DNA from: a virus
Lineage: Duplodnaviria > Heunggongvirae > Uroviricota > Caudoviricetes
IMG/VR virus record: IMGVR_UViG_3300029305_004950
Location: 61,430 to 125,429 of that record
Length of the DNA stretch: 64,000 bases
Direction: 5' to 3' (one strand)
This document shows positions 174 through 41,606 of the stretch, piece after piece. Position numbers and translations under genes: made by a program. The notes beneath the pieces were generated by a model that ran no database searches, was not told where the DNA came from, and saw nothing but the letters and a program-made list of their open reading frames with translations. How positions within the stretch are numbered: the first letter of the stretch is position 1; the number at the start of each line of letters is the position of its first letter.

Positions 174-509
174 ATGGAAGAAACTGTTTCTTTTAAGCAA
201 TTAATCCTAAATTTGGGATTAGGATTAAATGATGGGAGACCTATAGAAATATGTTTTCTTAACAATGAAAGTCGTTCAAAACATGTAGAAATTCTAAGAA
301 ATGTATATGATATTCATTGGTATTTTGAAATTTTTAAGATTTTAAATAAAAATGAATCTAACACTTTATGGTTTAATTATAAAGCTATTAATGATGGCTA
401 TAACTGGACAGAAGATCGTTTATTTATATGTAAAGGTGGTCCTTTTCAATTATCTCCTATAGAATATAAAGAAGTAGAATATGGAAAATTTCAGAAAGTA
501 GATGATTAG
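174..509 (+). CDS. small paralog family A member 1
   Basis: N-term SFKQLILNLGLG; RBS; tandem with similar ORFs. Confidence 0.8.
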   Translation: MEETVSFKQLILNLGLGLNDGRPIEICFLNNESRSKHVEILRNVYDIHWYFEIFKILNKNESNTLWFNYKAINDGYNWTEDRLFICKGGPFQLSPIEYKEVEYGKFQKVDD

Positions 510-512
510 AAT

Positions 513-836
513 ATGGAAGAAAATAAACTAATTTCATTTAAAAAGATAATGTTTGAGTTACAATTTTCTGGTATAATTAAATCTCCAATACGTATAAGTT
601 TCTTAAATGAAGAAGAATGTATTAAGTATAAAGATATTTTAAATGATGATTATAATTGTAGATATCGTATAAATGCAAATAAAGAAAATGATAACAATTG
701 GTATAGTATTCGTACTTTACCAAAATGTTTATGGATTTATAAAGGTGATTTCTATAAACAACATTTAGGATATGCTAAAAGATATAGACAATTAGAAAAT
801 GATATTTTTATAAATACTAATTTTATATTGGAGTGA
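513..836 (+). CDS. family A member 2
   Basis: SFKKIMFELQFSGII ... YRQLENDIF. Confidence 0.85.
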   Translation: MEENKLISFKKIMFELQFSGIIKSPIRISFLNEEECIKYKDILNDDYNCRYRINANKENDNNWYSIRTLPKCLWIYKGDFYKQHLGYAKRYRQLENDIFINTNFILE

Positions 837-845
837 TATTAGAAT

Positions 846-1139
846 ATGTATGGAGTAATCAAAGAACTTACTTTTAAACAATTGATGTTAGATCTTAGTT
901 TGAATTTGATAAGCAATCCAATAACGATAAGAATGCAAAATAGTAATGAGATTGAAAGGTACATAAAAATTCTAGAAAACGATTACTCAATTCCAAAATT
1001 TATTACTATAGCAACTATAAGACAAGATAAATTCTATTATGTATACTTTAATGATATAATTATCTATATAAGAAATGAGAATAATTATGGGAGTAGTTAC
1101 GCTCAATTACCTAATGATACTTTCATTGAAATCTACTAA
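846..1139 (+). CDS. family A member 3
   Basis: TFKQLMLDLSL ... YAQLPNDTF. Confidence 0.85.
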   Translation: MYGVIKELTFKQLMLDLSLNLISNPITIRMQNSNEIERYIKILENDYSIPKFITIATIRQDKFYYVYFNDIIIYIRNENNYGSSYAQLPNDTFIEIY

Positions 1140-1159
1140 TAAAAAAGAGGTATTTAGTC

Positions 1160-1492
1160 ATGTCTAGAAAAAATAGAAAAATCTATACAATTGATAAACT
1201 AGTTTTTGATGTAGTAATTGGTAATAAGGATAAAGTTACTATTAAGTTTTTAACTAATGAGTATTGTAAACATTGTGCAAGTACTTTAATAAGAGAAGGT
1301 AAATGTAATTGTATATCTGTAGGTAAGAAAAATATTAGAGACTCATTACAGATATACATACATGATAGAACTAATGAAACTATTATTAGTTGGTATGATG
1401 AAAATTGTTATAAGTATGTTGATTACATTCAGATTGGTTACAATCGATTTATTAAAAATAAATATAAATGGGGTGATCCTTTTGCCTATTAA
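1160..1492 (+). CDS. family A member 4
   Basis: TIDKLVFDVVIG ... YIQIGYNRF; GAGGT RBS. Confidence 0.8.
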   Translation: MSRKNRKIYTIDKLVFDVVIGNKDKVTIKFLTNEYCKHCASTLIREGKCNCISVGKKNIRDSLQIYIHDRTNETIISWYDENCYKYVDYIQIGYNRFIKNKYKWGDPFAY

Positions 1493-1811
1493 ATATTATA
1501 CTATAGAACAGATAGTTTTTGATTTTTTATTAGGTGTTAATAAAAATAACAAAATAAAAATCAAATGTATGTCTAACAAAAGTTGTAAAAAACTTAAACG
1601 TCTATTAGTTGAAAAATATGATTTTATAAACAAAAATTTTGAAATTTTCCCTACAAATACATTATTAATAGCAAAATTTTTAAATATCTTTATAGTATCT
1701 AAATATAGTACTCGTCAACGTTATAATTTTGATTATTTTCAAATTGATGAAAATTGCTTTATATCAGAATATGATTACTACATAAACTATTTAAGAAAAG
1801 GGGATCAATAA
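1482..1811 (+). CDS. family A member 5 (start revised to TTG 1482)
   Basis: GGGGTGA RBS before TTG; TIEQIVFDFLLG ... YFQIDENCF. Confidence 0.75.
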   Translation: MPIKYYTIEQIVFDFLLGVNKNNKIKIKCMSNKSCKKLKRLLVEKYDFINKNFEIFPTNTLLIAKFLNIFIVSKYSTRQRYNFDYFQIDENCFISEYDYYINYLRKGDQ

Positions 1812-1814
1812 TAC

Positions 1815-2201
1815 GTGTATGATTATAAAGCTAAACCATCGAAAAGATATACTTTTAAAGAAATAGTTTTCAAATTTATGATTAGTGATAAAAGTAATCT
1901 TATTATTCAATTTCCATGTACTCTTAGAGTCATTCAGTATTTTCAAGAAGCAAACGCATTATATGGATTTAATGATGTATTAAAAATAGATTTTGTAACT
2001 AATGAATTATTATTTGATATAGCAAATAACATTTTTAATAATGAGATAGAACAATTTCTTATTTTAAATAAAAATAGAAATTGTTTTATCTCAAACATTA
2101 AATATAGACTTGCTATAGATTATATATTTGATAAAGAAGATTCCTTTTATGAACCAATAACTCATTTTCTTAATGGAGAAATTGCTAATGGAAACATTTA
2201 G
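1815..2201 (+). CDS. family A member 6
   Basis: TFKEIVFKFMIS motif. Confidence 0.75.
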   Translation: MYDYKAKPSKRYTFKEIVFKFMISDKSNLIIQFPCTLRVIQYFQEANALYGFNDVLKIDFVTNELLFDIANNIFNNEIEQFLILNKNRNCFISNIKYRLAIDYIFDKEDSFYEPITHFLNGEIANGNI

Positions 2202-2469
2202 TCTTAAAAGAATACTTTTTGATATACAATTATTGGATTATAAAGCCATAACTATTAAGTGTCAATCTTATACTAACGCAATAAAAGTTGCAAATACTAT
2301 AAGAAAAATCACAGAGTATACAGTTTTTTCTGAAGGTGTTGGATTTGACTGTTTAGTAGTTTACAAAGATGGTCCATTTAATGTATTTGATACAATTATA
2401 CATCCACATGGAAAACCTACATATTTTCAATTAGAAGAAGATAGTTTTACAAAACTTAATGACTTATAG
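2188..2469 (+). CDS. family A member 7 (start revised to 2188)
   Basis: GGAG RBS; SLKRILFDIQL ... YFQLEEDSF. Confidence 0.8.
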   Translation: METFSLKRILFDIQLLDYKAITIKCQSYTNAIKVANTIRKITEYTVFSEGVGFDCLVVYKDGPFNVFDTIIHPHGKPTYFQLEEDSFTKLNDL

Positions 2470-2488
2470 AAAGAATAGGTTTTTAGTT

Positions 2489-2938
2489 ATGGAAGAGAAT
2501 ACTTGTTCGTTTAGACAAATCATGTTTGAGATTCAATCAGGTATAGTTGAAGAAGCTGTTGTAAACTTTCCAACTATGAAAAAACTAGTAAAATTTACTG
2601 AATTAATAGAAGAAAACTATGGAATTATTGACATTGATAGTTGTAAGTATATGTCTTCTCCAGAGAAACTTTTTAAGTTACAAATTCTAGATAAAAAAAA
2701 TAAAGCTAAATGTGATTACATGTTTTCAACTGGATTATTTAGTATTTTACTTAGTAAAGAAAATGGAATAATTACATGGCGTTATAGTGTATTATTTATG
2801 CCATTTATAACTAATTATAAGCAATTAGATAATGATCTATTTGAAAAACAAGAAAAATACACTATAGATGAATATAAGGAAAAACTAAATCAAAGAAGGA
2901 ATTATAAACATGGAGGAAAAAGTTTACTTAACACTTAA
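2489..2938 (+). CDS. family A member 8 (start revised to 2489)
   Basis: SFRQIMFEIQSGIV ... YKQLDNDLF. Confidence 0.8.
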   Translation: MEENTCSFRQIMFEIQSGIVEEAVVNFPTMKKLVKFTELIEENYGIIDIDSCKYMSSPEKLFKLQILDKKNKAKCDYMFSTGLFSILLSKENGIITWRYSVLFMPFITNYKQLDNDLFEKQEKYTIDEYKEKLNQRRNYKHGGKSLLNT

Positions 2939-3401
2939 ACAGGTATTGTTTGAGTTTATGTTAAATGGTGATAAACCTATATTATTATTGATCTTTAAAG
3001 ATTATAAACAAACTAAGAAACATATAGATCATTTATTTAAAGAATTTGATATACGAAATAAGAATGATTTTTCCTGTTTTTATTCAGAAGATTTTATTAA
3101 TATATTAGATGACTTTAATCCAAATTCAAAATCTGAATTTATGTTCAAGATGTTTGATTATATAGGTATAAAGTATCCAGACAACCAAGTTATAACATTA
3201 GTAAAAAAGAATACTAATGAACTATCAATGTATTATGTTGATAATAGTAGAGATTTACCACGTTACAAGAACTATCATATTTATGTAGAAGAATTGGATA
3301 ATGGTTTTATAGACTATAGTAATGAAGAAAGTTTGACAGTTATTAATGGATTACTGTATGAAAAAGGAGTGAAAATAGATTTTACATGGAGTCTATCGTA
3401 A
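2910..3401 (+). CDS. family A member 9
   Basis: TLKQVLFEFML ... ELDNGF. Confidence 0.8.
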   Translation: MEEKVYLTLKQVLFEFMLNGDKPILLLIFKDYKQTKKHIDHLFKEFDIRNKNDFSCFYSEDFINILDDFNPNSKSEFMFKMFDYIGIKYPDNQVITLVKKNTNELSMYYVDNSRDLPRYKNYHIYVEELDNGFIDYSNEESLTVINGLLYEKGVKIDFTWSLS

Positions 3402-3961
3402 TGGAAAAGTTTAAAACTGAAAATACTATGATTAGAAAACTTAAAGATGAAAATGGTCATGACTATGTAAGCCTAACTATAGATGATCCTAATTTCAATG
3501 AAAAGGTCACATTAAAGAATATAGTATTTAATGCAACCTTTAGTAACTATAACTACTATATAGTTTTTGATAAAGTACCAAGTAAAGAAGAAATTAGAAA
3601 TTTTGTTAGTACATTTAAGAATGATTTTAATTTAGATATTGGATTTAATGTCCATAATACGTTTGATAGTAGCAATGGTGCTAATAGACTAAACATGAAA
3701 GGTATATTCTCGATCTTTAATAGTGAAAGAGAATATAAAAAGACTGATACTGGTTATAAGTTTCTTATAAACGATAAAAGATACTTTACTTTAGTTCTGA
3801 GAATTGGTCGTGGAACTACTGAAACATTAAGTTGTAAGTTTACTCCGATGGTTAAATACAGCCATTATTCTTATTCAAAAACTGATTTCTATACTCAATT
3901 AAACTATAACTTGAATACATATGACAATGTAACTTTTATAGATTTCAAAAATATCATATAG
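3401..3961 (+). CDS. family A member 10 (N-terminally extended)
   Basis: TAATG coupling; internal TLKNIVFN ... YTQLNYN. Confidence 0.75.
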   Translation: MEKFKTENTMIRKLKDENGHDYVSLTIDDPNFNEKVTLKNIVFNATFSNYNYYIVFDKVPSKEEIRNFVSTFKNDFNLDIGFNVHNTFDSSNGANRLNMKGIFSIFNSEREYKKTDTGYKFLINDKRYFTLVLRIGRGTTETLSCKFTPMVKYSHYSYSKTDFYTQLNYNLNTYDNVTFIDFKNII

Positions 3962-3973
3962 GAGATTTCTAAT

Positions 3974-4507
3974 ATGGAATTAAATACTATAAAAGATATA
4001 AAACTCTATACTTATAAGATAACAAATGAGAACTTTGGTGAAGAATTTCGTTTTAAAAAGTTTCTTTTCGATTTACAAATTGAAGATAGACAAAAACGTT
4101 TTTGCATAGTATTTGATGAAATACCTTCTTTAATAAAACTTATAAGATTTATCAATAGATTTAAAAAACATTATAAAGTAATTATTTGTAAAGAAGAGCC
4201 TTATAGTGAGTTTTCTAAAGATATCTTTAAACATCTATTACAATTTCAGAAAAAATTGATAGAAGAAAGAAAATTTAGAAAGATAGAAAAATTAGATGAT
4301 TATAACTCTTATAAAGTTTTTATAAATGATAAAAGAGTTTATAATACTATGCTTTCATTTGCTATAAACTTACAAGATAGTAATGAAATTCTAATTGATA
4401 TATGTAAAATTTGGAATGGACCAATTTCTAGTAGTTATGAAATATTTAGAAACTACATTTCTAGATCTAATTCTTCAATTGTAAGATTTAGTGATATCCA
4501 ATTCTAA
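3974..4507 (+). CDS. family A member 11 (N-terminally extended)
   Basis: GGAGA RBS; internal RFKKFLFDLQI. Confidence 0.8.
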   Translation: MELNTIKDIKLYTYKITNENFGEEFRFKKFLFDLQIEDRQKRFCIVFDEIPSLIKLIRFINRFKKHYKVIICKEEPYSEFSKDIFKHLLQFQKKLIEERKFRKIEKLDDYNSYKVFINDKRVYNTMLSFAINLQDSNEILIDICKIWNGPISSSYEIFRNYISRSNSSIVRFSDIQF

Positions 4508-4510
4508 TAA

Positions 4511-4557
4511 AGTTCCTTAATACCATCATCAGGTATTAAGGAACTATTTTTTTTTTT
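4511..4557 (+). terminator. intrinsic terminator
   Basis: 14-bp stem AGTTCCTTAATACC/GGTATTAAGGAACT followed by long T run. Confidence 0.9.
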
Positions 4558-4990
4558 ACTTAAGTTGTTCTAAGTGAGATTCATAATCAATCTTAGTTGT
4601 TTTAATAGTACTATCGTGGAACTGTTTCATTGACTTTTGCATGATCGTACTAGCTATACGGTCAGCTATTAAGCCTAGATTCTTCATTTCTAGTCTGTAG
4701 TAAAGCTCACCTGCACACTTACTACAAATTTTATCATTAATACAGTATAAAGGAGAACGAATCTTTATTTTTTTACCGATATACTGTTTTACATTGTCAG
4801 CGTCTAATAAGACTAGTTTACCTTGAGGATCTTCAATCCAACGTAATAGGAATAGGCCCTTATTCTTATCGGTTAAAGTCATTTCAAGATATTTCTTAGT
4901 ACCACAGTCAGAATCTTTTTCATCTAGCATTAGGTGTTGATAGCCTGAACGACTTTGCTTAACTAAATAACCGCCGACCTCAGTGTTCTT
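4556..4990 (-). CDS. rpoC: RNA polymerase beta' C-terminal subunit, exon 2
   Basis: NTEVGGYL..DCGT..RSPLYC..CSKC..SMKQFH parallels RpoC KTANSGYL..DCGT..RS..C..CAHC..TMRTFH (bridge helix end, Zn site, trigger loop). Confidence 0.9.
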   Translation of the reverse strand, partial: KNTEVGGYLVKQSRSGYQHLMLDEKDSDCGTKKYLEMTLTDKNKGLFLLRWIEDPQGKLVLLDADNVKQYIGKKIKIRSPLYCINDKICSKCAGELYYRLEMKNLGLIADRIASTIMQKSMKQFHDSTIKTTKIDYESHLEQLK

Positions 4991-5202
4991 CATTTACTTT
5001 TTGTATAGATTCATTAAGTCTATACTATACAACTTTAGATTTCTCTAAAGATAAGACTATATCTTTACTAGAAACTAGTATTTCTTATTACGAATCTATT
5101 TAGATTCTTTATAGTCGTTGAACTTATAAATAAGTTGCTGATTAAGTATTGTTTTATACTCTTCCAGCAATTAAAGAAATTAAGAGCCAAGACTAATAAT
5201 TT
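4991..5202 (-). mobile_element. group I (IA-type) self-splicing intron, 212 nt, no ORF
   Basis: P1 AGAGCU/GGCUCU with U.G at the 5' splice site; AAUUGCUGGAA, AAUCAGCAA, UCAACGACUA and AAGAUAUAGUCU core elements; P3, P7.1, P8, P9 stems; terminal G; splicing restores the frame. Confidence 0.93.
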
Positions 5203-5976
5203 AGCTCTCGCATAAGTACCTGCAGTTAGGATATTTGCATAGATATGGAAATCTTCCTTGGGAATACCATCAACAAGTGAAGCCATAGAAGCTTCAAATT
5301 TACTAGGGTCAGTAAAATTCATTACTGAACCACGCATTAAGCAACTGTTCTTATAGTTGTTATCAAAACTACCTCTAGCTCCAGATGCATAGATCTGATA
5401 ACCAGGAATGTCCTCAACTTTTTTCTTAGATGCTTTTAATAACTCTTGTTCTATATTGAAGATAGTACTTACATCGTTATTTTGTACTCCTTCTTTATTT
5501 TCCTCAATTAGTCTCTTTTTCATCTCTAAGATATCATCATCAACAATAAACATCTTAGTATCTAATGAAGGTACAATAAAGTAAGTACAACTATAAGCTA
5601 ACCAGTTACATTGATCGAAGTAAAAATGCATATCTTCCATAGTAATCTTTTTAGTTAATAAACATTCATCAATAATCTTCTGGTCTAGATTCTTCATTGT
5701 TTTCTTAGTGATTATAGTGTCTTGATAACCAATTAGTCCTATAATCTTAGGTTCTAGTAGACACTTATTTACTATAAAGCGACCAACAGTGGTAGTAACT
5801 AATCTATCGTTATAATACTCTTTAGCATTTAGTTGTAGTTTGTCATTAGGTTCAAACTTAGCTTTAGGATTCTTTTGTGAAACTGCAAATAAATCCTTTA
5901 GTAAATCTAGAGAAAAATCTTCTTGTTTTAAAGAAAGCAAGTATTTCTTTTCTTCTTCAGTTATAATTCTTGACAA
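5203..5976 (-). CDS. rpoC: RNA polymerase beta' C-terminal subunit, exon 1 (spliced product about 402 aa; probably virion RNAP)
   Basis: TTTVGRFIVN, ASGARGS and bridge-helix start AGTYARA match RpoC; TTG start with AGAAGGTG RBS; late promoter upstream. Confidence 0.88.
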
Positions 5977-6119: not shown

Positions 6120-7067
6120 ATGGCTACAAAGAAAACACAAAAGCAAAAAGAATTCGATATGCTAATCAAATACGATGGTGATAAGAATGAGTTTACTAGT
6201 AAAGTTGATCTAAGCAATATAAAATTCATCAGAGAAAATCAAGATAAGATTAGTTGGTATGTACTATCTCAAAGAAAACTAACTAATGAGATTATTGAGG
6301 AGTTTTGGGATGAAATAAAGAGATATCTATCTTATGATAAAGAATTTTGGAATTTTAAAATCGATATACTAAAAGCTATTAGAGAAGTTTTCCATTGGTA
6401 TAGTTTTAATTTTCATAATGTAAATCCTTTAAGATTTTCATTAGATTTTTATAAGGAATTTGAAAGAGAATTAGATCCATATATTCAAAGTGTATCATGT
6501 GATAATCGACCTATTACTTTACTACCAGAGGAAACATTGGATTATCTTGTATTAGAAAAGAAAAATGAAAGAGTGATTAGTGTTCTTTCTAGTACTTCAA
6601 ATATCAGTATTTACTATATCGAAAAATACAAAAATGTACTTGATTGGAGTAAACTATCAACTTATTCAGTTGAATTATGCAAATCTAAGAACTTTAAGAA
6701 ATATGAAGAGTATATTGACATTGCTAGTTTTGCTTCATTAAAAACCATAACTAACGATTACTATACAAGTGGATCTTTTATTCTAAGCAAACTAAATATG
6801 GTATTAACTGAAGATTTTCTATTAAAATATAAAAACGCTATAGATTGGAAAGAAATAATCTACTGGGAAAGTTATAGAACTAATAGCAAAATAGAAAATA
6901 GCAAACTCAAAATAGTTTCTAGTGATTTCTTTAAAACACATAAAGATGAATTACCTGAAGAGGCTATTATTGAAATTGAAAACTGCATTAAAAATTTTGG
7001 ATATGATGAAGAAACACTGCATTATGGTGGACTTAGATATACATTACACTATAGATGGATTTTTTAA
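6120..7067 (+). CDS. tryptophan-repeat family protein, paralog 1
   Basis: repeated I/LDW..LS and EDFLLKYK..IDW units; colinear with next ORF. Confidence 0.7.
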   Translation: MATKKTQKQKEFDMLIKYDGDKNEFTSKVDLSNIKFIRENQDKISWYVLSQRKLTNEIIEEFWDEIKRYLSYDKEFWNFKIDILKAIREVFHWYSFNFHNVNPLRFSLDFYKEFERELDPYIQSVSCDNRPITLLPEETLDYLVLEKKNERVISVLSSTSNISIYYIEKYKNVLDWSKLSTYSVELCKSKNFKKYEEYIDIASFASLKTITNDYYTSGSFILSKLNMVLTEDFLLKYKNAIDWKEIIYWESYRTNSKIENSKLKIVSSDFFKTHKDELPEEAIIEIENCIKNFGYDEETLHYGGLRYTLHYRWIF

Positions 7068-7085: not shown

Positions 7086-8006
7086 ATGGCATCTAAAAAG
7101 AGAACAGCTAAACAAAAAGAATTTGATCTACTTCTAAAACATGCAGATAACATTGATGAGTTTACAAAAAGAGTAAAAACAACAGATGTTGAAATCATTA
7201 GAAAATATAGAGATAAACTAAATTGGTGGAATATTGTTACTCGAAAGACCTTAACTAATGAATTCATTGAGGAATTTTGGGAAGATATGGAATCACATAT
7301 TGAAAAAGTTCGTGTTAATCCATATATGAATATGGAATTCCTAAAGACAAATAGAAACTATATAGATTGGCGATACTTTGTATATGATAGTAGTGGTTCT
7401 AGATTTACTGTAGATTTCATTGAAGGATTTAAGGAAGAATTAAGACCTTACTTTAGAATAATGATTTCAAAAACATATCTACCTAAAGAAAGTAGAGATT
7501 ATCTTCTTAATGAAGAACAGAATAATCAAGATATGTATATGCAAATGTCTAAAAGCTATATTATTAAACCAGATGCTATTGAAAAATATAAAGATTTCTT
7601 AGATTGGGATTTATTATCTAAAAATGCTAGATGCTTACTTAATGACAAGTATTTTAAGATGTATCAAGATAGAATCAATCTATATGAATATACAAGTCTT
7701 AATATTCGTTATGGTGATTCCTATGAAGCATTTTTAAAGCGTGTTAAGAAAGTAGTAAACGAAGATTTTCTTCTAAAGTATAAGATTGCAAATCTGAATT
7801 GGCATGATATTATCCATTGTAATAGTCATAGATTAAATAGAGATATAAAAGATGGTAATGTAACTCTACCTTTAGATTTCTTTAAGAAATATAAGGATCA
7901 GTTACCTTACGATGTACAAGTTTCCTATAAGAGATTTATAGAAAACTATAAGTTTGAACAATCTAAAACATATCCTTATTTCTATGGAATTCCTTGGGAA
8001 TTCTAA
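7086..8006 (+). CDS. tryptophan-repeat family protein, paralog 2
   Basis: KQKEFDL N-terminus, LNW/IDW/LDW repeats, EDFLLKYK. Confidence 0.7.
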   Translation: MASKKRTAKQKEFDLLLKHADNIDEFTKRVKTTDVEIIRKYRDKLNWWNIVTRKTLTNEFIEEFWEDMESHIEKVRVNPYMNMEFLKTNRNYIDWRYFVYDSSGSRFTVDFIEGFKEELRPYFRIMISKTYLPKESRDYLLNEEQNNQDMYMQMSKSYIIKPDAIEKYKDFLDWDLLSKNARCLLNDKYFKMYQDRINLYEYTSLNIRYGDSYEAFLKRVKKVVNEDFLLKYKIANLNWHDIIHCNSHRLNRDIKDGNVTLPLDFFKKYKDQLPYDVQVSYKRFIENYKFEQSKTYPYFYGIPWEF

Positions 8007-8520: not shown

Positions 8521-8532
8521 TATATATTCTTA
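8521..8532 (+). promoter_or_regulatory. early promoter motif TATATATTCTTA
   Basis: heads the family B array. Confidence 0.65.
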
Positions 8533-8558
8533 AAGTAAGAATAGGAGGAATGAAACAT

Positions 8559-8915
8559 ATGACAAATAATGAAAGAATAGCTAAAAGATTTCAATTTGAT
8601 TTAGAAATGGATATATTTAAAGATACAAGTTATATAAACTCAATAAGAACCTATTACTTTAAGATTTCTAATAAAAAAGAAGTTGAATTAATGGATTTTG
8701 TTTTAGGTAAATTACTACACTTTGAAAATTTTTATGAAAAGCGTTATAAAGATAAAGTATCATCAGAATCATTATTTGAAGATGGAAGAGAATATGTAGT
8801 TTTAAGTATTGTGATATTAGATAATGATAAAAAAATCTATAATTTTTCAAAATACACCGACGAGTACTTTAATGAATTACCAGATTACATAAAGGAAGTG
8901 GAGATAGAAGAATGA
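8559..8915 (+). CDS. small paralog family B member 1 (start 8559)
   Basis: MTNNERIAKRFQFDLEM ... NELPDY; RBS spacing favours 8559. Confidence 0.85.
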   Translation: MTNNERIAKRFQFDLEMDIFKDTSYINSIRTYYFKISNKKEVELMDFVLGKLLHFENFYEKRYKDKVSSESLFEDGREYVVLSIVILDNDKKIYNFSKYTDEYFNELPDYIKEVEIEE

Positions 8916-9259
8916 CAAATAATGAAAGAATAGCTAAAAGATTTCAATTTGATTTAGAAATGGGTAGATTTAAAAGCTTCAGAAGAAATAACTATCAAAA
9001 TCAAATCCTATTTAGTATTAATACTCAAGAAGATTATGATAAAGTAAACGATCTTATATGGCATAAGATGCGAGGTATTCTAATTGGTAATCAAAATAGT
9101 GAGTTTACTAAAAGTGAAAATCTAATTTGTTGTGTCAATATTGATATAAAATCTAATTTCTTTTACTTCTGTAACTTTTCAATAACTACTAATGATAAAC
9201 ATCGTTATCTTAATGAAATGCCAGATTACATAAAGGAATGGGAAATAAGAAATGACTAA
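8912..9259 (+). CDS. family B member 2
   Basis: first 52 nt identical to member 1; NEMPDY. Confidence 0.85.
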   Translation: MTNNERIAKRFQFDLEMGRFKSFRRNNYQNQILFSINTQEDYDKVNDLIWHKMRGILIGNQNSEFTKSENLICCVNIDIKSNFFYFCNFSITTNDKHRYLNEMPDYIKEWEIRND

Positions 9260-9644
9260 AGAAATGATTGCTAAAAGATTCATGTTAGAATTAGAAATGG
9301 GATTATTTTATGAAGATAAAAAGGATAGATTGTTTATATTTTCTTTAGAAAATAAACATCAAATGCAAATTTTAAATGAGATTTTAGAAGATGCTAAATA
9401 TGAATATGAGTTTGAATATAAGTTTCCTAAACATTATCTATTTTCAAATAGTTTATTAGAAATAGATACAATATCTAAAAGTTATCATTTTGAAGTATTA
9501 AAATTTGTAATTGAATTGATGAAAAATAAATCAACTCATACAATAAATGAACTTCCTAGTTATATAAACGACTATAAACCAGAAGAAAGAGGAGAATTAC
9601 CAATTTATATAGGAGAAGATGGTTATATAATAAGTGAGGAATAG
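9252..9644 (+). CDS. family B member 3
   Basis: IAKRFMLELEMG ... NELPSY. Confidence 0.85.
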   Translation: MTKEMIAKRFMLELEMGLFYEDKKDRLFIFSLENKHQMQILNEILEDAKYEYEFEYKFPKHYLFSNSLLEIDTISKSYHFEVLKFVIELMKNKSTHTINELPSYINDYKPEERGELPIYIGEDGYIISEE

Positions 9645-9647
9645 ATT

Positions 9648-9992
9648 ATGACTAAAGAAGAAGTTATTAAAAGACTTAGATTTGACTTAGAAATTGGTGC
9701 TTTTAAATCAGCTTTTAATGATAATACATATTATTTTGATATATACAATCAACCAACTAAATTGAATATATTTTTAGAATTATTAGCTTTAACAGGATTA
9801 AAATTTGATAACATAATGAATGTTGAAATTGTACAAGGTATTGTAGTAGATATGGATGATAAAGATTTTGGTTATTGGGGTGATTCACTTAATTATGTAT
9901 CTACTACACCTAGCTTTAGTAAACTCTTAAATGAAATTCCTAAATATGTTTATGAATACTTAGACTCAAAAGGAGTAAACTATAATGACTAA
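9648..9992 (+). CDS. family B member 4
   Basis: IKRLRFDLEIG ... NEIPKY. Confidence 0.85.
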   Translation: MTKEEVIKRLRFDLEIGAFKSAFNDNTYYFDIYNQPTKLNIFLELLALTGLKFDNIMNVEIVQGIVVDMDDKDFGYWGDSLNYVSTTPSFSKLLNEIPKYVYEYLDSKGVNYND

Positions 9993-10296
9993 TGAAGAAA
10001 TTTTAAAAAGATTTGAATTTGATTTAAGAATGGGTAGATTTAAATCAGTAAACAATCTAAAAGTAAAAAATGTTTATGCTTTTAGATTAGCTAGGTTATC
10101 TGAATTTCTTTTACTATCTAAGATTTTAGATAAACTTGGTTTTACTAGTAATAACTTTCAACCTATGCATACTAATAAAGGAATTTCTATAAAAGTAGAT
10201 GATAAGATATATTGGACTTATCAAATCGATTTAAACGAAATTAATGATGACGAAAATAAACTACCAGAATATTGTAAAAGGTATAAATATGACTAA
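9985..10296 (+). CDS. family B member 5
   Basis: LKRFEFDLRMG ... NKLPEY. Confidence 0.85.
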   Translation: MTNEEILKRFEFDLRMGRFKSVNNLKVKNVYAFRLARLSEFLLLSKILDKLGFTSNNFQPMHTNKGISIKVDDKIYWTYQIDLNEINDDENKLPEYCKRYKYD

Positions 10297-10621
10297 TGAA
10301 GAAATCATTAAAAGATTTACATTTGATCTAGAATTAGGAGTATTTGAAAGAAAGAATAGAAATAATTGCTGTATTTACTATTTTAATATACCTGATAAAA
10401 ATGGACTTGATCTAATATCTAGTATTTTAGATGATATGAATTTTTACTATTATGAATATTTCTATGATAATACAATTGAAAATAATGTAACACCAACTAT
10501 ACTTATTGTAAATCTAACAGTTAAAAACTACTATTTCAATAGTTACATCTACTATAGTAAATATAACAAATTACCAGAGTATCTATATGATTATAAAGGA
10601 GTTAGAGAATTTAATGGATAA
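10289..10621 (+). CDS. family B member 6 (start revised to 10289)
   Basis: IKRFTFDLELG ... NKLPEY. Confidence 0.85.
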   Translation: MTNEEIIKRFTFDLELGVFERKNRNNCCIYYFNIPDKNGLDLISSILDDMNFYYYEYFYDNTIENNVTPTILIVNLTVKNYYFNSYIYYSKYNKLPEYLYDYKGVREFNG

Positions 10622-10901
10622 CAAAGGTTTAATTCCTATTGCAACTAACATATCCAGTTATGGTACTAATGACAGAAGAGAAGTAATCTTCAGTTGTCCT
10701 GTCTGTGATACATCTTTCAAATACTATCATCGTAAAGAAAAGTTTTGTCATAATTGTGGACAAAAGATAAATTGGGATGATGTGGAGTATGATACTATAG
10801 TTGATCCAGTTTTGATTAAAGCATGTATGAATAATCTTAAAAAAGTAAATGAAACACTTCATAAGATCAATGTACTTAATCATGGAAAGAGTGATGATTA
10901 G
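10614..10901 (+). CDS. double zinc-ribbon phage protein (start revised to 10614)
   Basis: CPVC ... CHNCGQKINW. Confidence 0.75.
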   Translation: MDNKGLIPIATNISSYGTNDRREVIFSCPVCDTSFKYYHRKEKFCHNCGQKINWDDVEYDTIVDPVLIKACMNNLKKVNETLHKINVLNHGKSDD

Positions 10902-10904: not shown

Positions 10905-11246
10905 ATGACAGATAATGAAAGAATTGCTAAAAGATTTGAATTTGATTTAACAATGGGTTTGTTTAAACCAATTAATTCAAGATTGAATGCATTTAAATCA
11001 GTAGACACAAATGATGATACCTATATTTTTATTATACATGAAAAATCTGATTATATCAGATTCTCTAAAGTACTAGAATCAATTGGATTTAAAGTACGAC
11101 ATATGTCTTTTAATTTTCCACTTACTAAAGGAATTACTATAAGTCTAAAGGATAAAAATTTTTGGACTTTTCAACGCAGTTATAGAACTAATCCTTTTGT
11201 TAGTGAAAATAAGTTACCTGATTATATCAAGGAGTATAAACTATGA
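10905..11246 (+). CDS. family B member 7
   Basis: IAKRFEFDLTMG ... NKLPDY. Confidence 0.85.
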   Translation: MTDNERIAKRFEFDLTMGLFKPINSRLNAFKSVDTNDDTYIFIIHEKSDYIRFSKVLESIGFKVRHMSFNFPLTKGITISLKDKNFWTFQRSYRTNPFVSENKLPDYIKEYKL

Positions 11247-11569
11247 CTAATGAAGAAATTCTAAAACGATTTAGCTTTGATTTAGAAATAGGGGCATTTA
11301 ATTCATTTTCATATTTCAATGACTTTATGCTATTTGATCTAAGAAATACTGAAAAAGATACTGGTTTGAGATTATACAAAGTACTATGTAAATTAGGTTA
11401 TAAACCCATTTCGTATGATCTAAATCTAAATTTCTTAGATAGTTACTGTTTTGTGTCTTTAAGTACAAAACAGAAGTGTTTTGAATTTGAGCATTACCAA
11501 TCAATCTACATAGGACTTTATGCAAGTGCTAATCCAATTCCAAAATACGTTTTAGAATATATATTCTAA
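11243..11569 (+). CDS. family B member 8
   Basis: LKRFSFDLEIG ... NPIPKY. Confidence 0.85.
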   Translation: MTNEEILKRFSFDLEIGAFNSFSYFNDFMLFDLRNTEKDTGLRLYKVLCKLGYKPISYDLNLNFLDSYCFVSLSTKQKCFEFEHYQSIYIGLYASANPIPKYVLEYIF

Positions 11570-12594: not shown

Positions 12595-13119
12595 ATGGAT
12601 TTACTTAAAGATTTTTCATCTTATATGATTTCAGCAGTAGTATTTACTATTGTTATGAATTGGAAACATATTTTAGCTTACTTTCAAGTTAAAAAGAAGT
12701 GTAAAGAAAGCATTAAAAGATTTGAATTTGACTTAGGAGTAGGGTTATTCAAACAAGTCAAAGTAAAAGATAATGAAATATACTTCTTTAAACTTGACAT
12801 GGTTGGTAAAAATGGACTAAATAAAGAATTAGCATTATTTGTTAAAGTATTAACCAAGTTAGGCTATACTATGTCTAAAGAATGTTGGTTTCATGGATGG
12901 AAACTTACATTTAATAATCTAGCACATATTAAAAGAGACTGTATTGGAATCAATAAAACAACTAAAACATTTTGGATTTATGAATTAATGACAGATAAGA
13001 TTACTTATTCTGATGTATATTCCATTGTAAATGCTGATGAAGATTTTATGATATGCTATAATAAAAATGAGAATGAATTACCTGAATATTTCAGAATGAA
13101 AAAAAAAGGAGGTAATTAA
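12595..13119 (+). CDS. family B member 9 with N-terminal transmembrane segment
   Basis: hydrophobic N-terminus, then IKRFEFDLGVG ... NELPEY. Confidence 0.8.
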   Translation: MDLLKDFSSYMISAVVFTIVMNWKHILAYFQVKKKCKESIKRFEFDLGVGLFKQVKVKDNEIYFFKLDMVGKNGLNKELALFVKVLTKLGYTMSKECWFHGWKLTFNNLAHIKRDCIGINKTTKTFWIYELMTDKITYSDVYSIVNADEDFMICYNKNENELPEYFRMKKKGGN

Positions 13120-13496: not shown

Positions 13497-13599
13497 TAAA
13501 GGTGATTCAATGAATAAGAAATTTGAATTTGATCTAGTAATGTCTGATCCTGGTGAAGCTTTATCTAGAATTATTAAAGAAGCAGGTTATACTCCTAGA
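13493..13599 (+). repeat. 107-bp perfect direct repeat, copy 1
   Basis: identical to 13860-13966; covers RBS and first 30 codons. Confidence 0.95.
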
Positions 13600-13863
13600 G
13601 TGGTGGCAACTAACCCTAATGGAGATTGTACTATTATAACTGAAGAGATAGCTAAATCTAAAGGAGATGTTTTTGAATTTCTTCATAAAGTAAATAAAGT
13701 AGCTAATATTGATTTATTCGTTTATAGAATTATTGATACTGATGATAGGGAATTTAACTATCGTACTACTGATAATAGATTTAGTGGATTAATCTATTTT
13801 GATGGAATAGTTGATAATGCTAGATTTATGTTAGAATACTCTAGCAAAGGTATATTATGGTAA
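13510..13863 (+). CDS. duplicated MNKKFEFDL protein, copy 1
   Basis: N-terminus identical to 13877 ORF. Confidence 0.85.
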   Translation: MNKKFEFDLVMSDPGEALSRIIKEAGYTPRVVATNPNGDCTIITEEIAKSKGDVFEFLHKVNKVANIDLFVYRIIDTDDREFNYRTTDNRFSGLIYFDGIVDNARFMLEYSSKGILW

Positions 13864-13966
13864 TAAAGGTGATTCAATGAATAAGAAATTTGAATTTGAT
13901 CTAGTAATGTCTGATCCTGGTGAAGCTTTATCTAGAATTATTAAAGAAGCAGGTTATACTCCTAGA
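13860..13966 (+). repeat. 107-bp perfect direct repeat, copy 2
   Basis: identical to 13493-13599. Confidence 0.95.
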
Positions 13967-14266
13967 ATGATAGCGAATAGTCCTATTGATAAGAGTTGTG
14001 TTATTATAACTGAAGAAATAGCTAATTCTGAAGAAGATGTTTTTGAGTTTATACGTAAAGTAAATGAAGTTGCTGATATAAATCTAGAAATATACGAAAT
14101 TAAATACGAAGATGTAACTTATACAGATGGGTCTACTAGATATCGTACTTCTGATGGAAAATTTCTTGGAATAGTTCATGTTGGTGGAACTGATGAATTA
14201 GGAAGAACTCCATCTGATGAAGATACTAGGTTTTTACTAAAATATTCTAGTAATGTTTGCATTTAA
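13877..14266 (+). CDS. duplicated MNKKFEFDL protein, copy 2
   Basis: paralog of 13510 ORF. Confidence 0.85.
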   Translation: MNKKFEFDLVMSDPGEALSRIIKEAGYTPRMIANSPIDKSCVIITEEIANSEEDVFEFIRKVNEVADINLEIYEIKYEDVTYTDGSTRYRTSDGKFLGIVHVGGTDELGRTPSDEDTRFLLKYSSNVCI

Positions 14267-14559: not shown

Positions 14560-14606
14560 ACATATCCACTAATCAACACGAACACATAAAGAAAGGAAGA
14601 ACAAAC

Positions 14607-31808: not shown

Positions 31809-32444
31809 ATGATACCAGAAAATAACAAAATTGTTGATATTTCTTCTGTATTAGAAGAAAATGGAAATGTTTCAATACAATCCCCTCAATCTTACTATAA
31901 ACTACCTTACTACGCAACTGCTTTCTATGAAGAAGGAGAATTTAATAAGTTCATAAAGAATGTAGAAAAAGATGTTCGTAAATCCGATGAATATTCCGCA
32001 TATCTATGGAATCTAAGAAATCAAGGTTTAGAAGCTTGTTCTTTCTTAGGAAATGTTAATGACGAAAATGCTACTATCGAATTCCATCATTATCCTTTTA
32101 CTCTATTCGATATAGTTGCTACTGTAACTGAGAAGAGATTATTCAATAAAGAACCAACTAGTACTTTCTTAGTTGCATCTGAAGTATTAAAACTACATTT
32201 TGATAATAAAGTAGGATTATTACCTTTATCCAAAACTGTACATGAATTAGCTCATGCTGGAGAAATCTTTATAAATCTAAATCAAGTATTTGGTAATTTC
32301 CAACAGTTTGTTAATGAATATGAAAAATATATACCATTAGAAGCTAAGAACGCATATAATAAAGTAATAGAAGCCAGTAAGAACGATATTACGTACAGCG
32401 ATAAAGATGTATTGAGTTATAAAGGTAAAAAGGAGGAGATTTAA
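31809..32444 (+). CDS. HNH-like protein, paralog of 41853 ORF
   Basis: CSFLG..IEFHHYPF ... LLPLSKTVHELAH. Confidence 0.5.
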   Translation: MIPENNKIVDISSVLEENGNVSIQSPQSYYKLPYYATAFYEEGEFNKFIKNVEKDVRKSDEYSAYLWNLRNQGLEACSFLGNVNDENATIEFHHYPFTLFDIVATVTEKRLFNKEPTSTFLVASEVLKLHFDNKVGLLPLSKTVHELAHAGEIFINLNQVFGNFQQFVNEYEKYIPLEAKNAYNKVIEASKNDITYSDKDVLSYKGKKEEI

Positions 32445-37104: not shown

Positions 37105-37128
37105 ATAAACTCTCCTTTCTAAAAAAAT

Positions 37129-37161: not shown

Positions 37162-37171
37162 TTCAAAATTC

Positions 37172-37588: not shown

Positions 37589-37606
37589 AGTTATATAACA
37601 CTCCTT

Positions 37607-37786: not shown

Positions 37787-37813
37787 TTACGCTTCTTCCT
37801 TTTCTTTTGTATT

Positions 37814-38578: not shown

Positions 38579-38580
38579 GA

Positions 38581-38808: not shown

Positions 38809-38826
38809 ATTAATTTCTTCCTTTCT

Positions 38827-39489
38827 TTAGTCAGCAAATGTTATAATGTCTGGAATTTCTACAAATTTACCATAGTCTTCATAACGATATATGGTAGAAT
38901 AAATACATTCATTTTTATACTTTTCAAATACATTATATAGTTCTTTTCTTTCTTTTTCTAAAAATTCTTTATCTCTATTGATTCTCTTACCTTCTTTGGT
39001 AATATTCTCGTCTGTAATATCAAATAGAATCATCATTGGAATTATGAAAAGTTTTTCATCATTGATTAATTCAAATAAATCATCAATAGCGTCATAACTA
39101 GCAATTACTGTATTAATTTTACCTTTTTCAAATACAGGAATTGTACCATATTGATTCTCACCAAAGTTATCTAGTCTAGCAATTAAAGAATCATGCATAT
39201 AGTCATAGATTTCTTTATTTACAAAATAATAACCATTATCTGATTTTCCTCTACGAGATCTAGTTGTAATCTGAGGTAATTTAGAAAAATACTTTGGATA
39301 GTATTCAACTAGACATTTTTCAAAATAAGACTTACCACTTCCAGAACATCCTGCTATAATAAGAAGATAGTTAGGCTCTTTGTTAGTTACTTTACGAGTA
39401 ACTGTATCTAATAATTCATTATGATATGTGTGTTTATAGAAGATATTGGTATTAAGTATTTTACTTACATTCAACTTTTCTTCGATCAT
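38827..39489 (-). CDS. gmk: guanylate kinase-like protein
   Basis: AGCSGSGKS; LPQITTRSRR; YYFV; YGT. Confidence 0.8.
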   Translation of the reverse strand: MIEEKLNVSKILNTNIFYKHTYHNELLDTVTRKVTNKEPNYLLIIAGCSGSGKSYFEKCLVEYYPKYFSKLPQITTRSRRGKSDNGYYFVNKEIYDYMHDSLIARLDNFGENQYGTIPVFEKGKINTVIASYDAIDDLFELINDEKLFIIPMMILFDITDENITKEGKRINRDKEFLEKERKELYNVFEKYKNECIYSTIYRYEDYGKFVEIPDIITFAD

Positions 39490-40312
39490 TATTCTCACCC
39501 TTTCCTTTATACTTATTTTTAATTTCTTTTTTATATCTTTTATTTTCTAGTTTGATTTCCTTATAAGTATCTAATTTTAACTCATGAATCTTTTCTTTTA
39601 TAGCTTTTTTACATAGCCTATCACAAGTATTATTAAGTATTGTTGCTAAACTACTATTCATTTTTATTTGAGTATGTCCTTTTACCCATCCGCTATAAAG
39701 ATCTAGAAAAATCAAATAATAGTTTAATTCATTCAATAATTCTCTCATCAATTCAGAATAATATAATGAGTTTGCATTTACTGTACATTTTTTAGCTACT
39801 AGTTTTATTACTTTAGGTTGTATAATGTATTCTTGTAAATTCTGAGAATCACTACTAACTATGATTTTAGATCTTTTTAATGCTATTTTATTTTCCTTTT
39901 CATTCAAATATCTTAATCCAATTAGTAATGCTAAAATTTCAACAGTATTATTATCTAAAAACTGTTCATAAACTTTAGTTGTTCTAAAAATTTCATTATC
40001 ATTTTTATAAACGATAGTAGTTAAAGCTGATAATTTTACAGTTTGTTCTTCTTCATTTCCATAATTATATACTGCACCATCACAGTATATTGTATAGATG
40101 TCTCCATTAAATGCAGTTTTATTTTCCTTTACTATTTTAAAAAGATTAGATTTTTCCAATCGTAATTTATCAGAGTTAGTTAATAGACAATCATACCTAA
40201 TAAATTCTTTATTAGTTTCTTTTCTACGAATATTGTAACCGTGGTTTTCAAATCTTATACTATTTGTTGTTTTATCTAACATTTTAATTACATTACATTC
40301 ATAAAAATCCAT
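39461..40312 (-). CDS. rnhA: ribonuclease HI, paralog 2
   Basis: YCDGA, NNTVE, SDSQ, WVKGH, N..CDRL. Confidence 0.8.
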   Translation of the reverse strand: MDFYECNVIKMLDKTTNSIRFENHGYNIRRKETNKEFIRYDCLLTNSDKLRLEKSNLFKIVKENKTAFNGDIYTIYCDGAVYNYGNEEEQTVKLSALTTIVYKNDNEIFRTTKVYEQFLDNNTVEILALLIGLRYLNEKENKIALKRSKIIVSSDSQNLQEYIIQPKVIKLVAKKCTVNANSLYYSELMRELLNELNYYLIFLDLYSGWVKGHTQIKMNSSLATILNNTCDRLCKKAIKEKIHELKLDTYKEIKLENKRYKKEIKNKYKGKGENNDRRKVECK

Positions 40313-40329
40313 TACAATTATTAATCACC

Positions 40330-41064
40330 TTACTTTCTAATTGGTAATCCATTTTCTAGTAAAAGTTCATTGATTGCTTCATTACATAAAAGGTCACATT
40401 GTACATTCATCTTATTCCATAAAGTATCTCTATCATCTTCATGACCTCTAACCCAACAAGTTAAAATTTCAAATTCTGGATTATGAAGATAGTTGTTAAA
40501 ATCTTGTAATAACTCTTTATTAGATACAGGTTTACCTTCATTATTCTTCCAACCACGTTTGATATATCCAATCATCCATTCATTGATACTCTTAATAAAG
40601 TACTGAGAATCAGAAACAAGAATTACAAATTTCTTTTCATCATTAAATCCTTGATTTAGATAATCTAGACCATTTAATCCAGCTCTTAATTCACAATAGT
40701 TATTAGTAATATCTTCTTTAGCATCACTATAACGATGAATCTCTTTATTGTTTTTAGTAATGATAGTAGCCATACTTCCAAATACTGGTTTATTAGGGTC
40801 TTTCTTACCATTATTGTAACTGCCACCATCAGAGAAAATCATGTAAACATCTTCGTTATAAACTTCATCTTCACCTTTTAGAACTTTAAGATTTTCAGGT
40901 AATTCATCTAAGAGATGAATGTTTTCTGTATAGAAAAAGCAATCTTTGTAAGTGGTCTTTTGGGTTTGTTTGTTATAAGTTTTTGACTTAAAAGGTACGT
41001 TATGTTCTTCTAACCAAATATCCTTTGGATTAGAATTTTCAATAAGTAATTTAAAGAATTTCAT
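40330..41064 (-). CDS. rnhA: ribonuclease HI, paralog 1
   Basis: FSDGG, TNNYCEL, SDSQY, N.ELL, WVRGH, N..CDLL. Confidence 0.9.
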   Translation of the reverse strand: MKFFKLLIENSNPKDIWLEEHNVPFKSKTYNKQTQKTTYKDCFFYTENIHLLDELPENLKVLKGEDEVYNEDVYMIFSDGGSYNNGKKDPNKPVFGSMATIITKNNKEIHRYSDAKEDITNNYCELRAGLNGLDYLNQGFNDEKKFVILVSDSQYFIKSINEWMIGYIKRGWKNNEGKPVSNKELLQDFNNYLHNPEFEILTCWVRGHEDDRDTLWNKMNVQCDLLCNEAINELLLENGLPIRK

Positions 41065-41336
41065 ACTTTATTTAATCTCCTTTTTTCATCATAGATAGTA
41101 TTAATTAACTCACGTTTAGTATTTATAATTCCACTAGAAATTTCAAAATATAGTTTTTTAATTTCGTTTTCATGTATACTCTTACAAATTGGTTTATCAT
41201 TTTCATACAAAAATGTTGTTATAAGTTTTTTCTTGATATAAAAACTAGATGGATTTAGTATTACAATCTTCTTTAAAGATAATTCTTCTATTTCTAGATT
41301 TACAAGATCTACTAATTGAGTTAGATCTGTTGGCAT
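41061..41336 (-). CDS. small protein with C-terminal IKKLYFEISSGII motif
   Basis: paralog of 41355 ORF; AAGGAG RBS. Confidence 0.7.
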   Translation of the reverse strand: MPTDLTQLVDLVNLEIEELSLKKIVILNPSSFYIKKKLITTFLYENDKPICKSIHENEIKKLYFEISSGIINTKRELINTIYDEKRRLNKV

Positions 41337-41354
41337 TATTAGTATTTTCTCCTT

Positions 41355-41606
41355 TCATTTCCATTTTAGTCCTCTATTAATTAAAACTCTATCTAGTTCA
41401 ATTCTGTCTTTAATTATTCCAGTACTTATTTCAAAATGTATTTTTCTAATTATATATCTATTATTACTGGAACATACTACAACTACTCCATTATCATCTA
41501 ATCTACATAGGTAATACTTAGTAAATTTCTTTTTAATAAAGAATTTTTTAGGATCAAATTTAGGTTCTTTATTAAATCTTTCCATAAAATCACAGATCGT
41601 TACCAT
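41355..41606 (-). CDS. small protein with C-terminal IRKIHFEISTGII motif
   Basis: paralog of 41061 ORF. Confidence 0.7.
   Translation of the reverse strand: MVTICDFMERFNKEPKFDPKKFFIKKKFTKYYLCRLDDNGVVVVCSSNNRYIIRKIHFEISTGIIKDRIELDRVLINRGLKWK

Follow-up and report, generated by a model that had tools for sequence, protein, structure and literature searches.

A short helix motif of the overall form K-[KR]-x-x-F-[DE]-L-x-M is shared by 26 small proteins encoded in the analyzed window, a 64,000-nucleotide stretch of a 319.6-kb, 28.6% GC jumbo phage genome related to Bacillus phage AR9/PBS1, and by ~47 proteins of the genome as a whole, with roughly one in eight genes of this 320-kb phage carrying the helix motif at the N-terminus. 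The carriers are not independent cases, as they sort into four to five fast-diversifying families (A, B, C, D, and W), which were delimited with HMMs and all-against-all BLAST, and common descent is the source of motif sharing inside each of them. The existence of families A, B, C, and W is clear, and that of D is probable; they have expanded as tandem arrays, whose sizes vary among related phages, and they come from uncultivated jumbo phages that form a clade related to AR9/PBS1. Judged by sequence comparison, the likeness of the helix between families is real and exceeds that among other N-termini of the same phage. We tentatively favor, at slightly less than even chances, the view that variable early proteins carry the helix as a constant handle for interactions, the helix being the first one in several lineage-specific, rapidly diversifying families.

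Families and arrays carrying the motif

A preliminary description of the window had reported about 25 motif proteins, in line with the 26 counted here (11 A, 9 B, the C pair, the D pair, and two W), and all motif peptides it quoted were found at the genes it had named. It had further called these proteins otherwise hypervariable, which is overstated for A and B, whose members are homologous over their full length. Its view of ~25 carriers on different scaffolds holds insofar as the bodies of C, W, and D cannot be aligned with B, but the carriers collapse to the four to five families. Searches of Pfam, PHROG, and PDB by sequence gave no match for the families, apart from the Trp-repeat protein 6120-7067, which matches phrog_3532 at E = 1.2e-8. 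The genes of the first family are arranged as follows.

174-509, 513-836, 846-1139, 1160-1492, 1482-1811, and 1815-2201, + strand: family A, genes 1-6
2173-2469, 2489-2938, 2910-3401, 3386-3961, and 3974-4507, + strand: family A, genes 7-11

Family A thus comprises 11 tandem genes spanning 174-4507 on the + strand, two of which have non-ATG starts (A5, TTG at 1482; A6, GTG at 1815). Its version of the motif, [ST]-[FLI]-K-[QKE]-[IL]-x-F-[DE]-h-x-h-x-[GND], lies at residues ~6-20, and the C-terminal part contains a conserved block, Y..Y.Q...nD.F. Syntenic A arrays are present in the related phage records G001 (at least nine genes) and G004 (at least six). Family B occupies the region downstream.

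8521-8534, + strand: early-promoter-like site (TATCTATATATTCT), preceding the first B gene by 29 nt
8550/8562-8915, 8912-9259, 9252-9644, 9648-9992, 9985-10296, and 10289-10621, + strand: family B array, first part
10587-10901: zinc-ribbon gene inside the family B array, breaking it up
10905-11246 and 11243-11569, + strand: family B array, last part
12595-13119, + strand: family B member with the motif at residue 41, behind a hydrophobic N-terminal segment

With nine members in the window and 19 in the genome, family B also forms arrays of 9-18 genes each on six other related phage contigs and accounts for 213 clusters at 50% identity in metagenomes. K-R-F-x-F-D-L-x-M-G is present in all nine window proteins, and members are fixed at both ends (MTNEEIxKRFxFDLxMGxFK at the N-terminus, N-E-[IL]-P-[DE]-Y-I at the C-terminus); a profile built from 84 unique members contains conserved core positions as well, and conservation in the middle of the proteins is close to random. 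Among 145 representatives less than 50% identical to each other, the first 20 residues are near-invariant, including the polar ones (K in 139 of 145, R in 124, the two F in 143 and 144, D in 136, and L in 131). The syntenic part of record L005 encodes four B members that are extended at the N-terminus, and several of these end in an amphipathic tail. Synonymous codons of the motif vary (GGT, GGA, and GGG for G; AGA and CGA for R; TTA, CTA, TTG, and CTG for L), and selection therefore acts at the protein level. The 5′ ends of the genes in the window B array are 62-86% identical in DNA, with ~52 identical nucleotides common to genes 1 and 2. The first three codons, ATG ACT AAT, may owe their conservation to an effect on the DNA level, as they create TGA and TAA in the two alternative frames and so end the upstream gene.

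The preliminary description had also placed early-type promoters before several motif gene clusters, and a promoter-like site is indeed found ahead of the B array. This putative promoter resembles the AR9 early promoter consensus published as AAATATATATTAT-(6N)-G (PMC5312081), and its TATATATTCT core is also located 28-66 nt upstream of ~17 genes genome-wide. The remaining carriers comprise three pairs.

6120-7067 and 7086-8006, + strand: Trp-repeat (W) proteins, starting with ..T/A-K-Q-K-E-F-D-[ML]
13510-13863 and 13877-14266, + strand: family C pair, starting with MNKKFEFDLVM
41061-41336 and 41355-41606, - strand: family D pair, carrying the motif toward the C-terminal end (IKKLYFEISSGII and IRKIHFEISTGII)

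Orthologues of family C keep the motif (NKKFEFDLNI in L005, NKKLEFDLKM in G004). Family W has 13 members in the genome, two of which lie in the window; the genome members start with L-T-K-K-Q-x-F-D-L-x-x-K-Y, and the orthologues of G001 and G004 retain the motif. The Trp-repeat proteins had been credited with a weaker echo of the motif, but it is in fact no weaker, since L-T-K-K-Q-I-F-D-L-x-x-K-Y is a conserved start in the 13 genome members and in relatives from other phages. In family D, the motif comprises residues 54-72 of proteins 83-91 residues long and resembles the family A helix, that of A8 and A2 above all.

Likeness of the motif between families

Enrichment of the motif over shuffled proteomes, proposed as a check in the preliminary description, was confirmed with its strict pattern, found 17 times in the genome vs 0.12 ± 0.35; these matches are not independent, because family B homologues account for 14 of them. 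Cross-family position weight matrices (PWMs) are a fairer test of chance. When the N-terminal 30 residues of 320 other proteins from this phage serve as the null, the matrix of one family places the others at median percentiles of 95-100, with every family pair at or above the 95th. This result weighs against the proposal that the cross-family likeness is due to chance or composition and that conservation is real only within families, a proposal we regard as very improbable. In its favor, the core shared by all families contains little information (four defined positions only: K, F, [DE], and a hydrophobic residue), several unrelated proteins reach a similar score with the family-A matrix, and under a whole-protein null the B matrix leaves family A at a median percentile of 65. 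The other medians under this null are 93-97, and most of the best matches fall at the motif position.

Profile-profile alignments point in the same direction. For every family pair the best local alignment by hhalign lands on the motif, and this coincidence on one element counts against chance, as does the P-value of the C-B match (P = 1.3e-4), which covers 11 columns, all of them motif columns, with no alignment of the C body to B. A and B match over 34 collinear columns when the enlarged A alignment is used (P = 8e-4, probability 25%), followed by W-B (P = 0.007), D-A (P = 0.04 over 22 columns), and W-A (P = 0.054); statistical support is weak for the links of B to A, of W to A, and of D. 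The two D peptides also speak against chance, ranking first and second among 88,304 windows compared with the A8 14-mer (BLOSUM scores 38 and 36, the next being 29). They are not picked up by the B and W matrices, and D is therefore the weakest link of the set.

The helix in predicted structures

AlphaFold2 makes the motif the first helix in the models of both A and B, in agreement with the helix supposed in the preliminary description. The B model (pLDDT 85.8, pTM 0.80) has the motif helix at residues 3-16 with a pLDDT of ~95, and the fixed C-terminal N-E-[IL]-P-[DE]-Y-I is likewise placed with high confidence; the A model consists of a helix at residues 9-18 (pLDDT ~80), a strand at 26-30, a helix at 33-47, and four further strands. 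Both models follow the same order of elements (helix, strand, helix, three to four strands). According to these models, the A and B helices may be the first helix of one shared domain type, the very case that the preliminary description had set against its adaptor proposal, and from the alignments A and B may be distant paralogs.

As the helix appears integral to the modeled B domain and is predicted at this confidence, its conservation could be mainly for folding. Accordingly, one explanation holds the helix to be purely structural, a folding nucleus or cap that A, B, and perhaps C have by descent and W and D by convergence, with no common partner; we consider it possible, though rather doubtful. 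The convergence it invokes concerns a common amphipathic K..F-D-L pattern in an AT-rich proteome. Besides the high helix pLDDT and the pTM of the B model, the common element order of A and B together with their collinear match, the restriction of the all-family core to four positions, and the internal location of the motif in W members and in 12595, as expected of a domain's first helix, are in keeping with such a role. Several observations argue against it. The probably exposed K, R, and D and the N/E ahead of the helix vary as little as the hydrophobic residues among the 145 B representatives, and this near-invariance of polar and hydrophobic positions alike is easier to reconcile with an interaction surface than with a helix that is entirely buried. 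Weak neighbors in AFDB and the ESM Atlas align mostly to the bodies only (B ~35-111, A ~22-107), so that both bodies have neighbors without the helix; no neighbor was common to the A and B models among those compared. Listeria phage LPJP1 (MZ422438.1) encodes a tandem array of W homologues (23% identity, E = 8e-8) that fold from the same repeats without the K-K-Q-x-F-D-L start, the repeats beginning at once, and families A and B are not detectable in this phage. The confinement of the C-B match to the motif columns is a further point against a purely structural role.

LAGLIDADG domains, built in the order helix-strand-strand-helix-strand-strand-helix, make up seven of the best 50 VIA rows for the B model, at Z-scores of only 2.1-2.7, and none is among the structural matches listed for the A model. 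By sequence, no LAGLIDADG family model was matched: 35 B proteins drawn from the window, L001, L003, and metagenome sequences gave no such Pfam match at E up to 10, and the register of the B acidic residues relative to glycine differs from that of LAGLIDADG.

The helical wheel has two hydrophobic stripes (I/F/L and F/M), suited to packing on two sides, and several paralogs are presumably co-transcribed in arrays. Both points would agree with an oligomerization element through which paralogs form homo- or hetero-oligomers, the alternative put forward in the preliminary description, but in B the second stripe could be covered intramolecularly by the fixed C-terminal segment, and we judge oligomerization to be improbable.

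A constant helix on variable proteins

Under the favored explanation of a constant handle, A and B would be distantly related paralogs, both having received the helix as part of a shared helix-strand-helix-sheet domain, and C, W, and D would have gained the same helix on other bodies, probably via recombination at conserved 5′ ends. The handle would close a small domain, in B in cooperation with the equally fixed C-terminal segment, and expose one invariant surface made up of K, R, D, and flanking aromatic residues. This surface would meet one partner, or serve one biochemical step, that all of them share, leaving the remainder of each protein to vary freely and to recognize different targets. 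Given that early-type promoter-like sites lie upstream, the families would most likely be host-takeover or anti-defence proteins. A stronger version, which we hold to be less probable and rather unlikely, makes the motif a portable address: one phage or host machine would recognize K-[KR]-x-x-F-D-L-x-M on ~47 early proteins with four to five unrelated bodies, and the arrays would be an effector library with a common signal. Candidate machines would be a packaging/injection apparatus, a protease/unfoldase, or a membrane or transcription complex.

The closest precedent for a constant address on variable cargo is found in T4, where the internal proteins IPI, IPII, and IPIII have a 10-residue N-terminal targeting peptide (CTS) and divergent bodies (Mullaney and Black 1996, reviewed in PMC9026906), and the sets of internal proteins vary between related phages (PMC9026906). 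The present families are similar in that a short conserved N-terminal peptide is placed on otherwise dissimilar proteins and in that the gene set differs among related phages. A comparable targeting signal, by which a diverse protein library is sent into the prohead or another virion compartment and injected with the DNA, would draw on this precedent and on the conserved N-terminal peptide of ~47 proteins, and also on the W member at window coordinate 215241, which is fused behind an N-terminal domain that BLAST groups with large structural-looking proteins. The partners of this domain are presumably tail-fibre-like. We nevertheless think such targeting improbable. An [LI]-x-E prohead-protease site was sought in the motif logos and none is conserved behind the helix, the conserved acid sitting within F-D-L; in the model the peptide is a helix built into the fold and not a propeptide that could be cut away, the motif is internal in some members, and early-type promoter-like sites lie upstream, including the one ahead of the B array. 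Unlike the T4 peptide, to which no sequence similarity was established, the motif is also present in many more copies, arranged in tandem arrays.

Lineage-specific expansion of a small protein in a jumbo phage has been described for the ~35 zinc-ribbon copies of Bacillus phage G (PMC7824862), which resemble the tandem expansions reported here; in contrast to phage G, three different expanded families and smaller ones have one N-terminal element in common. The W bodies themselves resemble phrog_3532 and the LPJP1 array, apart from the missing start in the latter. The poxvirus ankyrin-repeat/PRANC (F-box-like) families, to which the preliminary description had likened the motif proteins, combine many paralogs with a constant docking element and a variable target-binding part. 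The analogy would be limited to a large virus with many paralogs and to the proposed way of working, as what stays constant here is a helix of ~15 residues at the N-terminus and the host is bacterial; Pfam scans of ten window motif proteins (A-D and W) and of the 35 B proteins found neither ankyrin nor PRANC/F-box domains at E up to 10. Beyond the T4 peptide, we know of no effector library with a common signal in phages.

Family B alone accounts for more than 200 metagenome clusters that are devoid of any annotation. Should the helix prove to be a common handle, a single pull-down could reveal the role of large, fast-evolving jumbo phage arrays, and the motif would provide a sequence tag for spotting such accessory proteins in other genomes. 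If it is only a fold element, several new protein families are defined, with their expansion and recombination shown.

Motif-bearing gene families and their phage

The source contig is a single sequence of 319,626 bp with 28.6% GC, in which the window occupies positions 61430–125429. A 774-residue von Willebrand-type protein (14553–16877) displays 41–42% identity to proteins of Bacillus phages AR9, PBS1 and relatives, and split RNA-polymerase beta-prime genes adjoin the arrays; on these sequence grounds the phage belongs with the AR9/PBS1-related jumbo phages. The beta-prime-like subunit pieces are encoded by adjacent ORFs at 4556–4993 and 5068–5976 (−), with a gap between them.

Starting from a simple gene call of 365 ORFs, the motif-bearing proteins were grouped by all-against-all BLAST together with iterated HMMs. 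Families A, B and W (the latter being the Trp-repeat proteins) are the three largest definable gene families of the genome by BLAST on this call. The preliminary description had counted about 25 motif proteins; family sorting agrees, yielding 26 in the window, and ~47 genome-wide, or roughly one gene in eight.

Motif-bearing families, in window coordinates
174–4507: family A, 11 tandem genes, two with non-ATG starts set by hand (TTG at 1482, GTG at 1815)
Inside the window: family B, 9 members
32–35 kb upstream of the window: second B array, 9 more members, one with a GTG start
191250: one lone B member
13510/13877: family C, gene pair
41061/41355: family D, gene pair
6120 and 7086: Trp-repeat proteins, part of family W (13 members in the genome), whose members start L-T-K-K-Q-x-F-D-L-x-x-K-Y
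215241–215939 (−), outside the window (G000:C1:276670–277368): 232-residue W member, K-K-Q-I-F-D-L motif and Trp repeats after an N-terminal domain

Further paralogs were found by BLAST. Zinc-ribbon genes lie at 10587–10901 (+), inside the B array, and at 20424–20669 (−); the former has a counterpart at 9655–9954, likewise inside the B array, in L005, a related phage contig syntenic with the window. One gene pair is formed by 31809–32444 (+) and 41853–42560 (−), another by 39461–40312 and 40330–41064 (−). The latter pair follows immediately downstream of the D pair; its first gene overlaps the end of 41061–41336.

Pfam and PHROG scans of families A, B, C and D returned no match over cut-offs, the B profile found no PDB sequence below E = 0.1, and A and B members are absent from 50,697 GenBank phages searched by tblastn. 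B arrays of 9–18 genes are present on a metagenome contig from ENA, with 17 genes in 5.8 kb, and on IMG/VR contigs of up to 299 kb. In L005 an A gene comes first, followed by the split beta-prime genes and two W genes; next stands a B array, broken up by zinc-ribbon and phrog_31560 genes just as in the window, and a C gene closes the series. The motif is retained in A arrays and in W and C orthologues of related records, and array sizes vary from phage to phage, a pattern indicative of gene birth and death.

The first B gene is preceded, at a distance of 29 nt, by a TATATATTCT-type site that resembles, by sequence match, the AR9 early-promoter consensus AAATATATATTAT-(6N)-G (PMC5312081). Across the genome, about 17 gene starts have a site of the form TTT[TA]A..TATATATTCT 28–66 nt ahead of them (for example at 8521, 11558, 25059(−) and 36464(−), and, before the window begins, at −843 and −869); these sites are probably this phage's own version of the AR9 early promoter. 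Variants matching in sequence precede the W pair (6061) and the D pair (41642). Our search before the A array came up as empty as that of the preliminary description.

Resemblance of the motif between families

The strict motif pattern proposed in the preliminary description matches 17 times in the genome versus 0.12 times in shuffled proteomes, but 14 of the 17 matches are family B proteins and thus not independent. Since a motif shared within one family reflects common descent, raw counts overstate the case, and position matrices were therefore trained on one family and scored on the remaining ones, with proteins of the same phage as null. Against whole proteins, best matches of the other families reach median percentiles of 93–97, except for the B matrix on A (65), and most of these best matches fall at the motif position. 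When only residues 1–30 are used on both sides, which removes any general N-terminal composition effect, the median percentiles are 95–100. In profile–profile comparisons, the same element is the best local alignment in every family pair tested.

Profile–profile comparisons between families
C versus B: P = 1.3e-4, 11 columns, motif only
A versus B: P = 8e-4, 34 columns, A alignment enlarged with relatives
W versus B: P = 0.007, 17 columns
W versus A: P = 0.054, 17 columns
D versus A: P = 0.04, 22 columns

The D peptides rank as the top 2 among 88,304 windows scored against the helix of A8, the eighth A gene; the B and W matrices miss them, which makes D the weakest link. We conclude that the resemblance between families is real for B, C and W; for A it is probable, for D possible. 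That the similarity between families arose by chance is very improbable in our estimate.

Conservation and modelled fold of the B helix

At 50% identity, the B sequences gathered by an exhaustive profile search form 213 clusters, almost all of about 100–130 residues and matching end to end. Among the 145 representatives that hold the complete 21-residue motif window, residues 1–20 are nearly fixed as M-T-N-E-E-I-x-K-R-F-x-F-D-L-x-M-G-x-F-K, with the polar K, R and D fixed to the same degree as the aromatics. Across 84 unique array members, columns of high information are confined to this N-terminus, the C-terminal N-E-I-P-D-Y-I-K-E-Y and a few core positions. Drawn as a helical wheel, the motif has its hydrophobic residues in two stripes, hence the helix is likely covered on two sides; the sheet, together with either the C-terminal segment or a partner, would be a plausible cover.

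Synonymous codons vary at conserved residues in two phages, and 5' ends of B genes share only 62–86% DNA identity, with the exception of one gene pair. Selection thus acts on the encoded protein, and gene conversion happens occasionally; a DNA- or RNA-level cause of helix conservation was rejected because synonymous sites vary and replacements are conservative in the protein. The exceptional pair, B genes 1 and 2, shares about 52 identical nt at the 5' end while the remainder has diverged, which suggests gene conversion between them. The B start itself is fixed as ATG-ACT-AAT and, at junctions such as 8544–8621, 8897–8974 and other B starts, reads ATG-ACT-AAT-GA, placing TGA and TAA into the two alternate frames. 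This matches overlapping stop–start junctions, many upstream genes ending in ..N-D or ..Y-D within the start of the next gene, so the start may reflect a DNA-level constraint.

The wording "helix" in the preliminary description is borne out by AlphaFold2 models of both A and B. In the B model (35-sequence alignment, pLDDT 85.8, pTM 0.80) the motif forms helix 3–16 (pLDDT about 95); after it come a loop of lower confidence, one strand, another helix that closes with the conserved L-G-Y, and three strands, and a short C-terminal helix spans P-D-Y-I (pLDDT about 95). In the A model (11 sequences, pLDDT 71), the motif is helix 9–18, and behind it lie one strand, one more helix and then four strands. 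A ribbon-helix-helix strand, prompted by the alternating F-x-F-x-L, was discarded given the modelled helices, as was a clamp-binding or PIP-box reading, B having no conserved Q.

Foldseek of the B model against PDB gave no match at E <= 0.001, VIA found no matching solved structure for B (top Z 3.1) and generic alpha/beta matches only for A (Z <= 5.9), and an ESM Atlas feature search with B yielded nothing over 0.83. The BFVD matches were all weak and fell on small, uncharacterised proteins of phages, several of them paralogs from Acinetobacter phage Aristophanes. Among predicted structures, these small paralogs and those of phages related to Aristophanes come closest to the B body, though the match is weak, and the fold may be a small one common among early proteins of phages. 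Neighbours in predicted-structure libraries are weak and align mostly to the body alone (B residues ~35–111, A residues ~22–107), indicating that such bodies occur without the helix.

Placement of the helix and its possible role

W proteins of a repeat array in Listeria phage LPJP1 (MZ422438.1) begin straight at the repeats and carry no motif, so the helix is not intrinsic to the W-repeat fold. A free N-terminus is not required either, since the motif lies internally in the W member at 215241 and in the protein at 12595, where a hydrophobic segment precedes it. The N-terminal domain of the former clusters by BLAST with large structural-looking proteins of 645–2290 residues, which we read as putatively tail-fibre-like, so that some W repeats may belong to the virion. 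A B subgroup with N-terminal extensions is found in L005 (10809–12657), 12595–13119 having the hydrophobic segment instead; several members of this subgroup end in amphipathic W/K-rich tails, a hint that they associate with membranes.

Among documented systems, the T4 capsid targeting sequence (PMC9026906), an N-terminal peptide on internal proteins, follows the most similar logic. A packaging signal of this type is improbable here, as the T4-type protease site is missing and the helix is modelled as integrated into the fold. Oligomerisation of paralogs through the helix also has a low probability. The two-copy prediction of a B homodimer (score 0.01) returned no verdict and speaks neither for nor against it.

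A purely structural helix is unlikely, if the most serious competitor. The preliminary description regarded a core helix of one shared fold as the case against its portable docking helix, and for two families this applies in part: A and B may be remotely related paralogs sharing one domain type. C, W and D seem to place the helix on other bodies. The families themselves exist, are expanded and share a helix conserved at the protein level across families. Because the B helix is near-invariant on all faces, the C-terminus of the B proteins is co-conserved, neither the structural neighbours nor the LPJP1 W proteins have the helix, and early-type promoter-like sites are present, we tentatively favor a role in which the helix would be a putative handle for interaction, kept constant while the early proteins that bear it vary.
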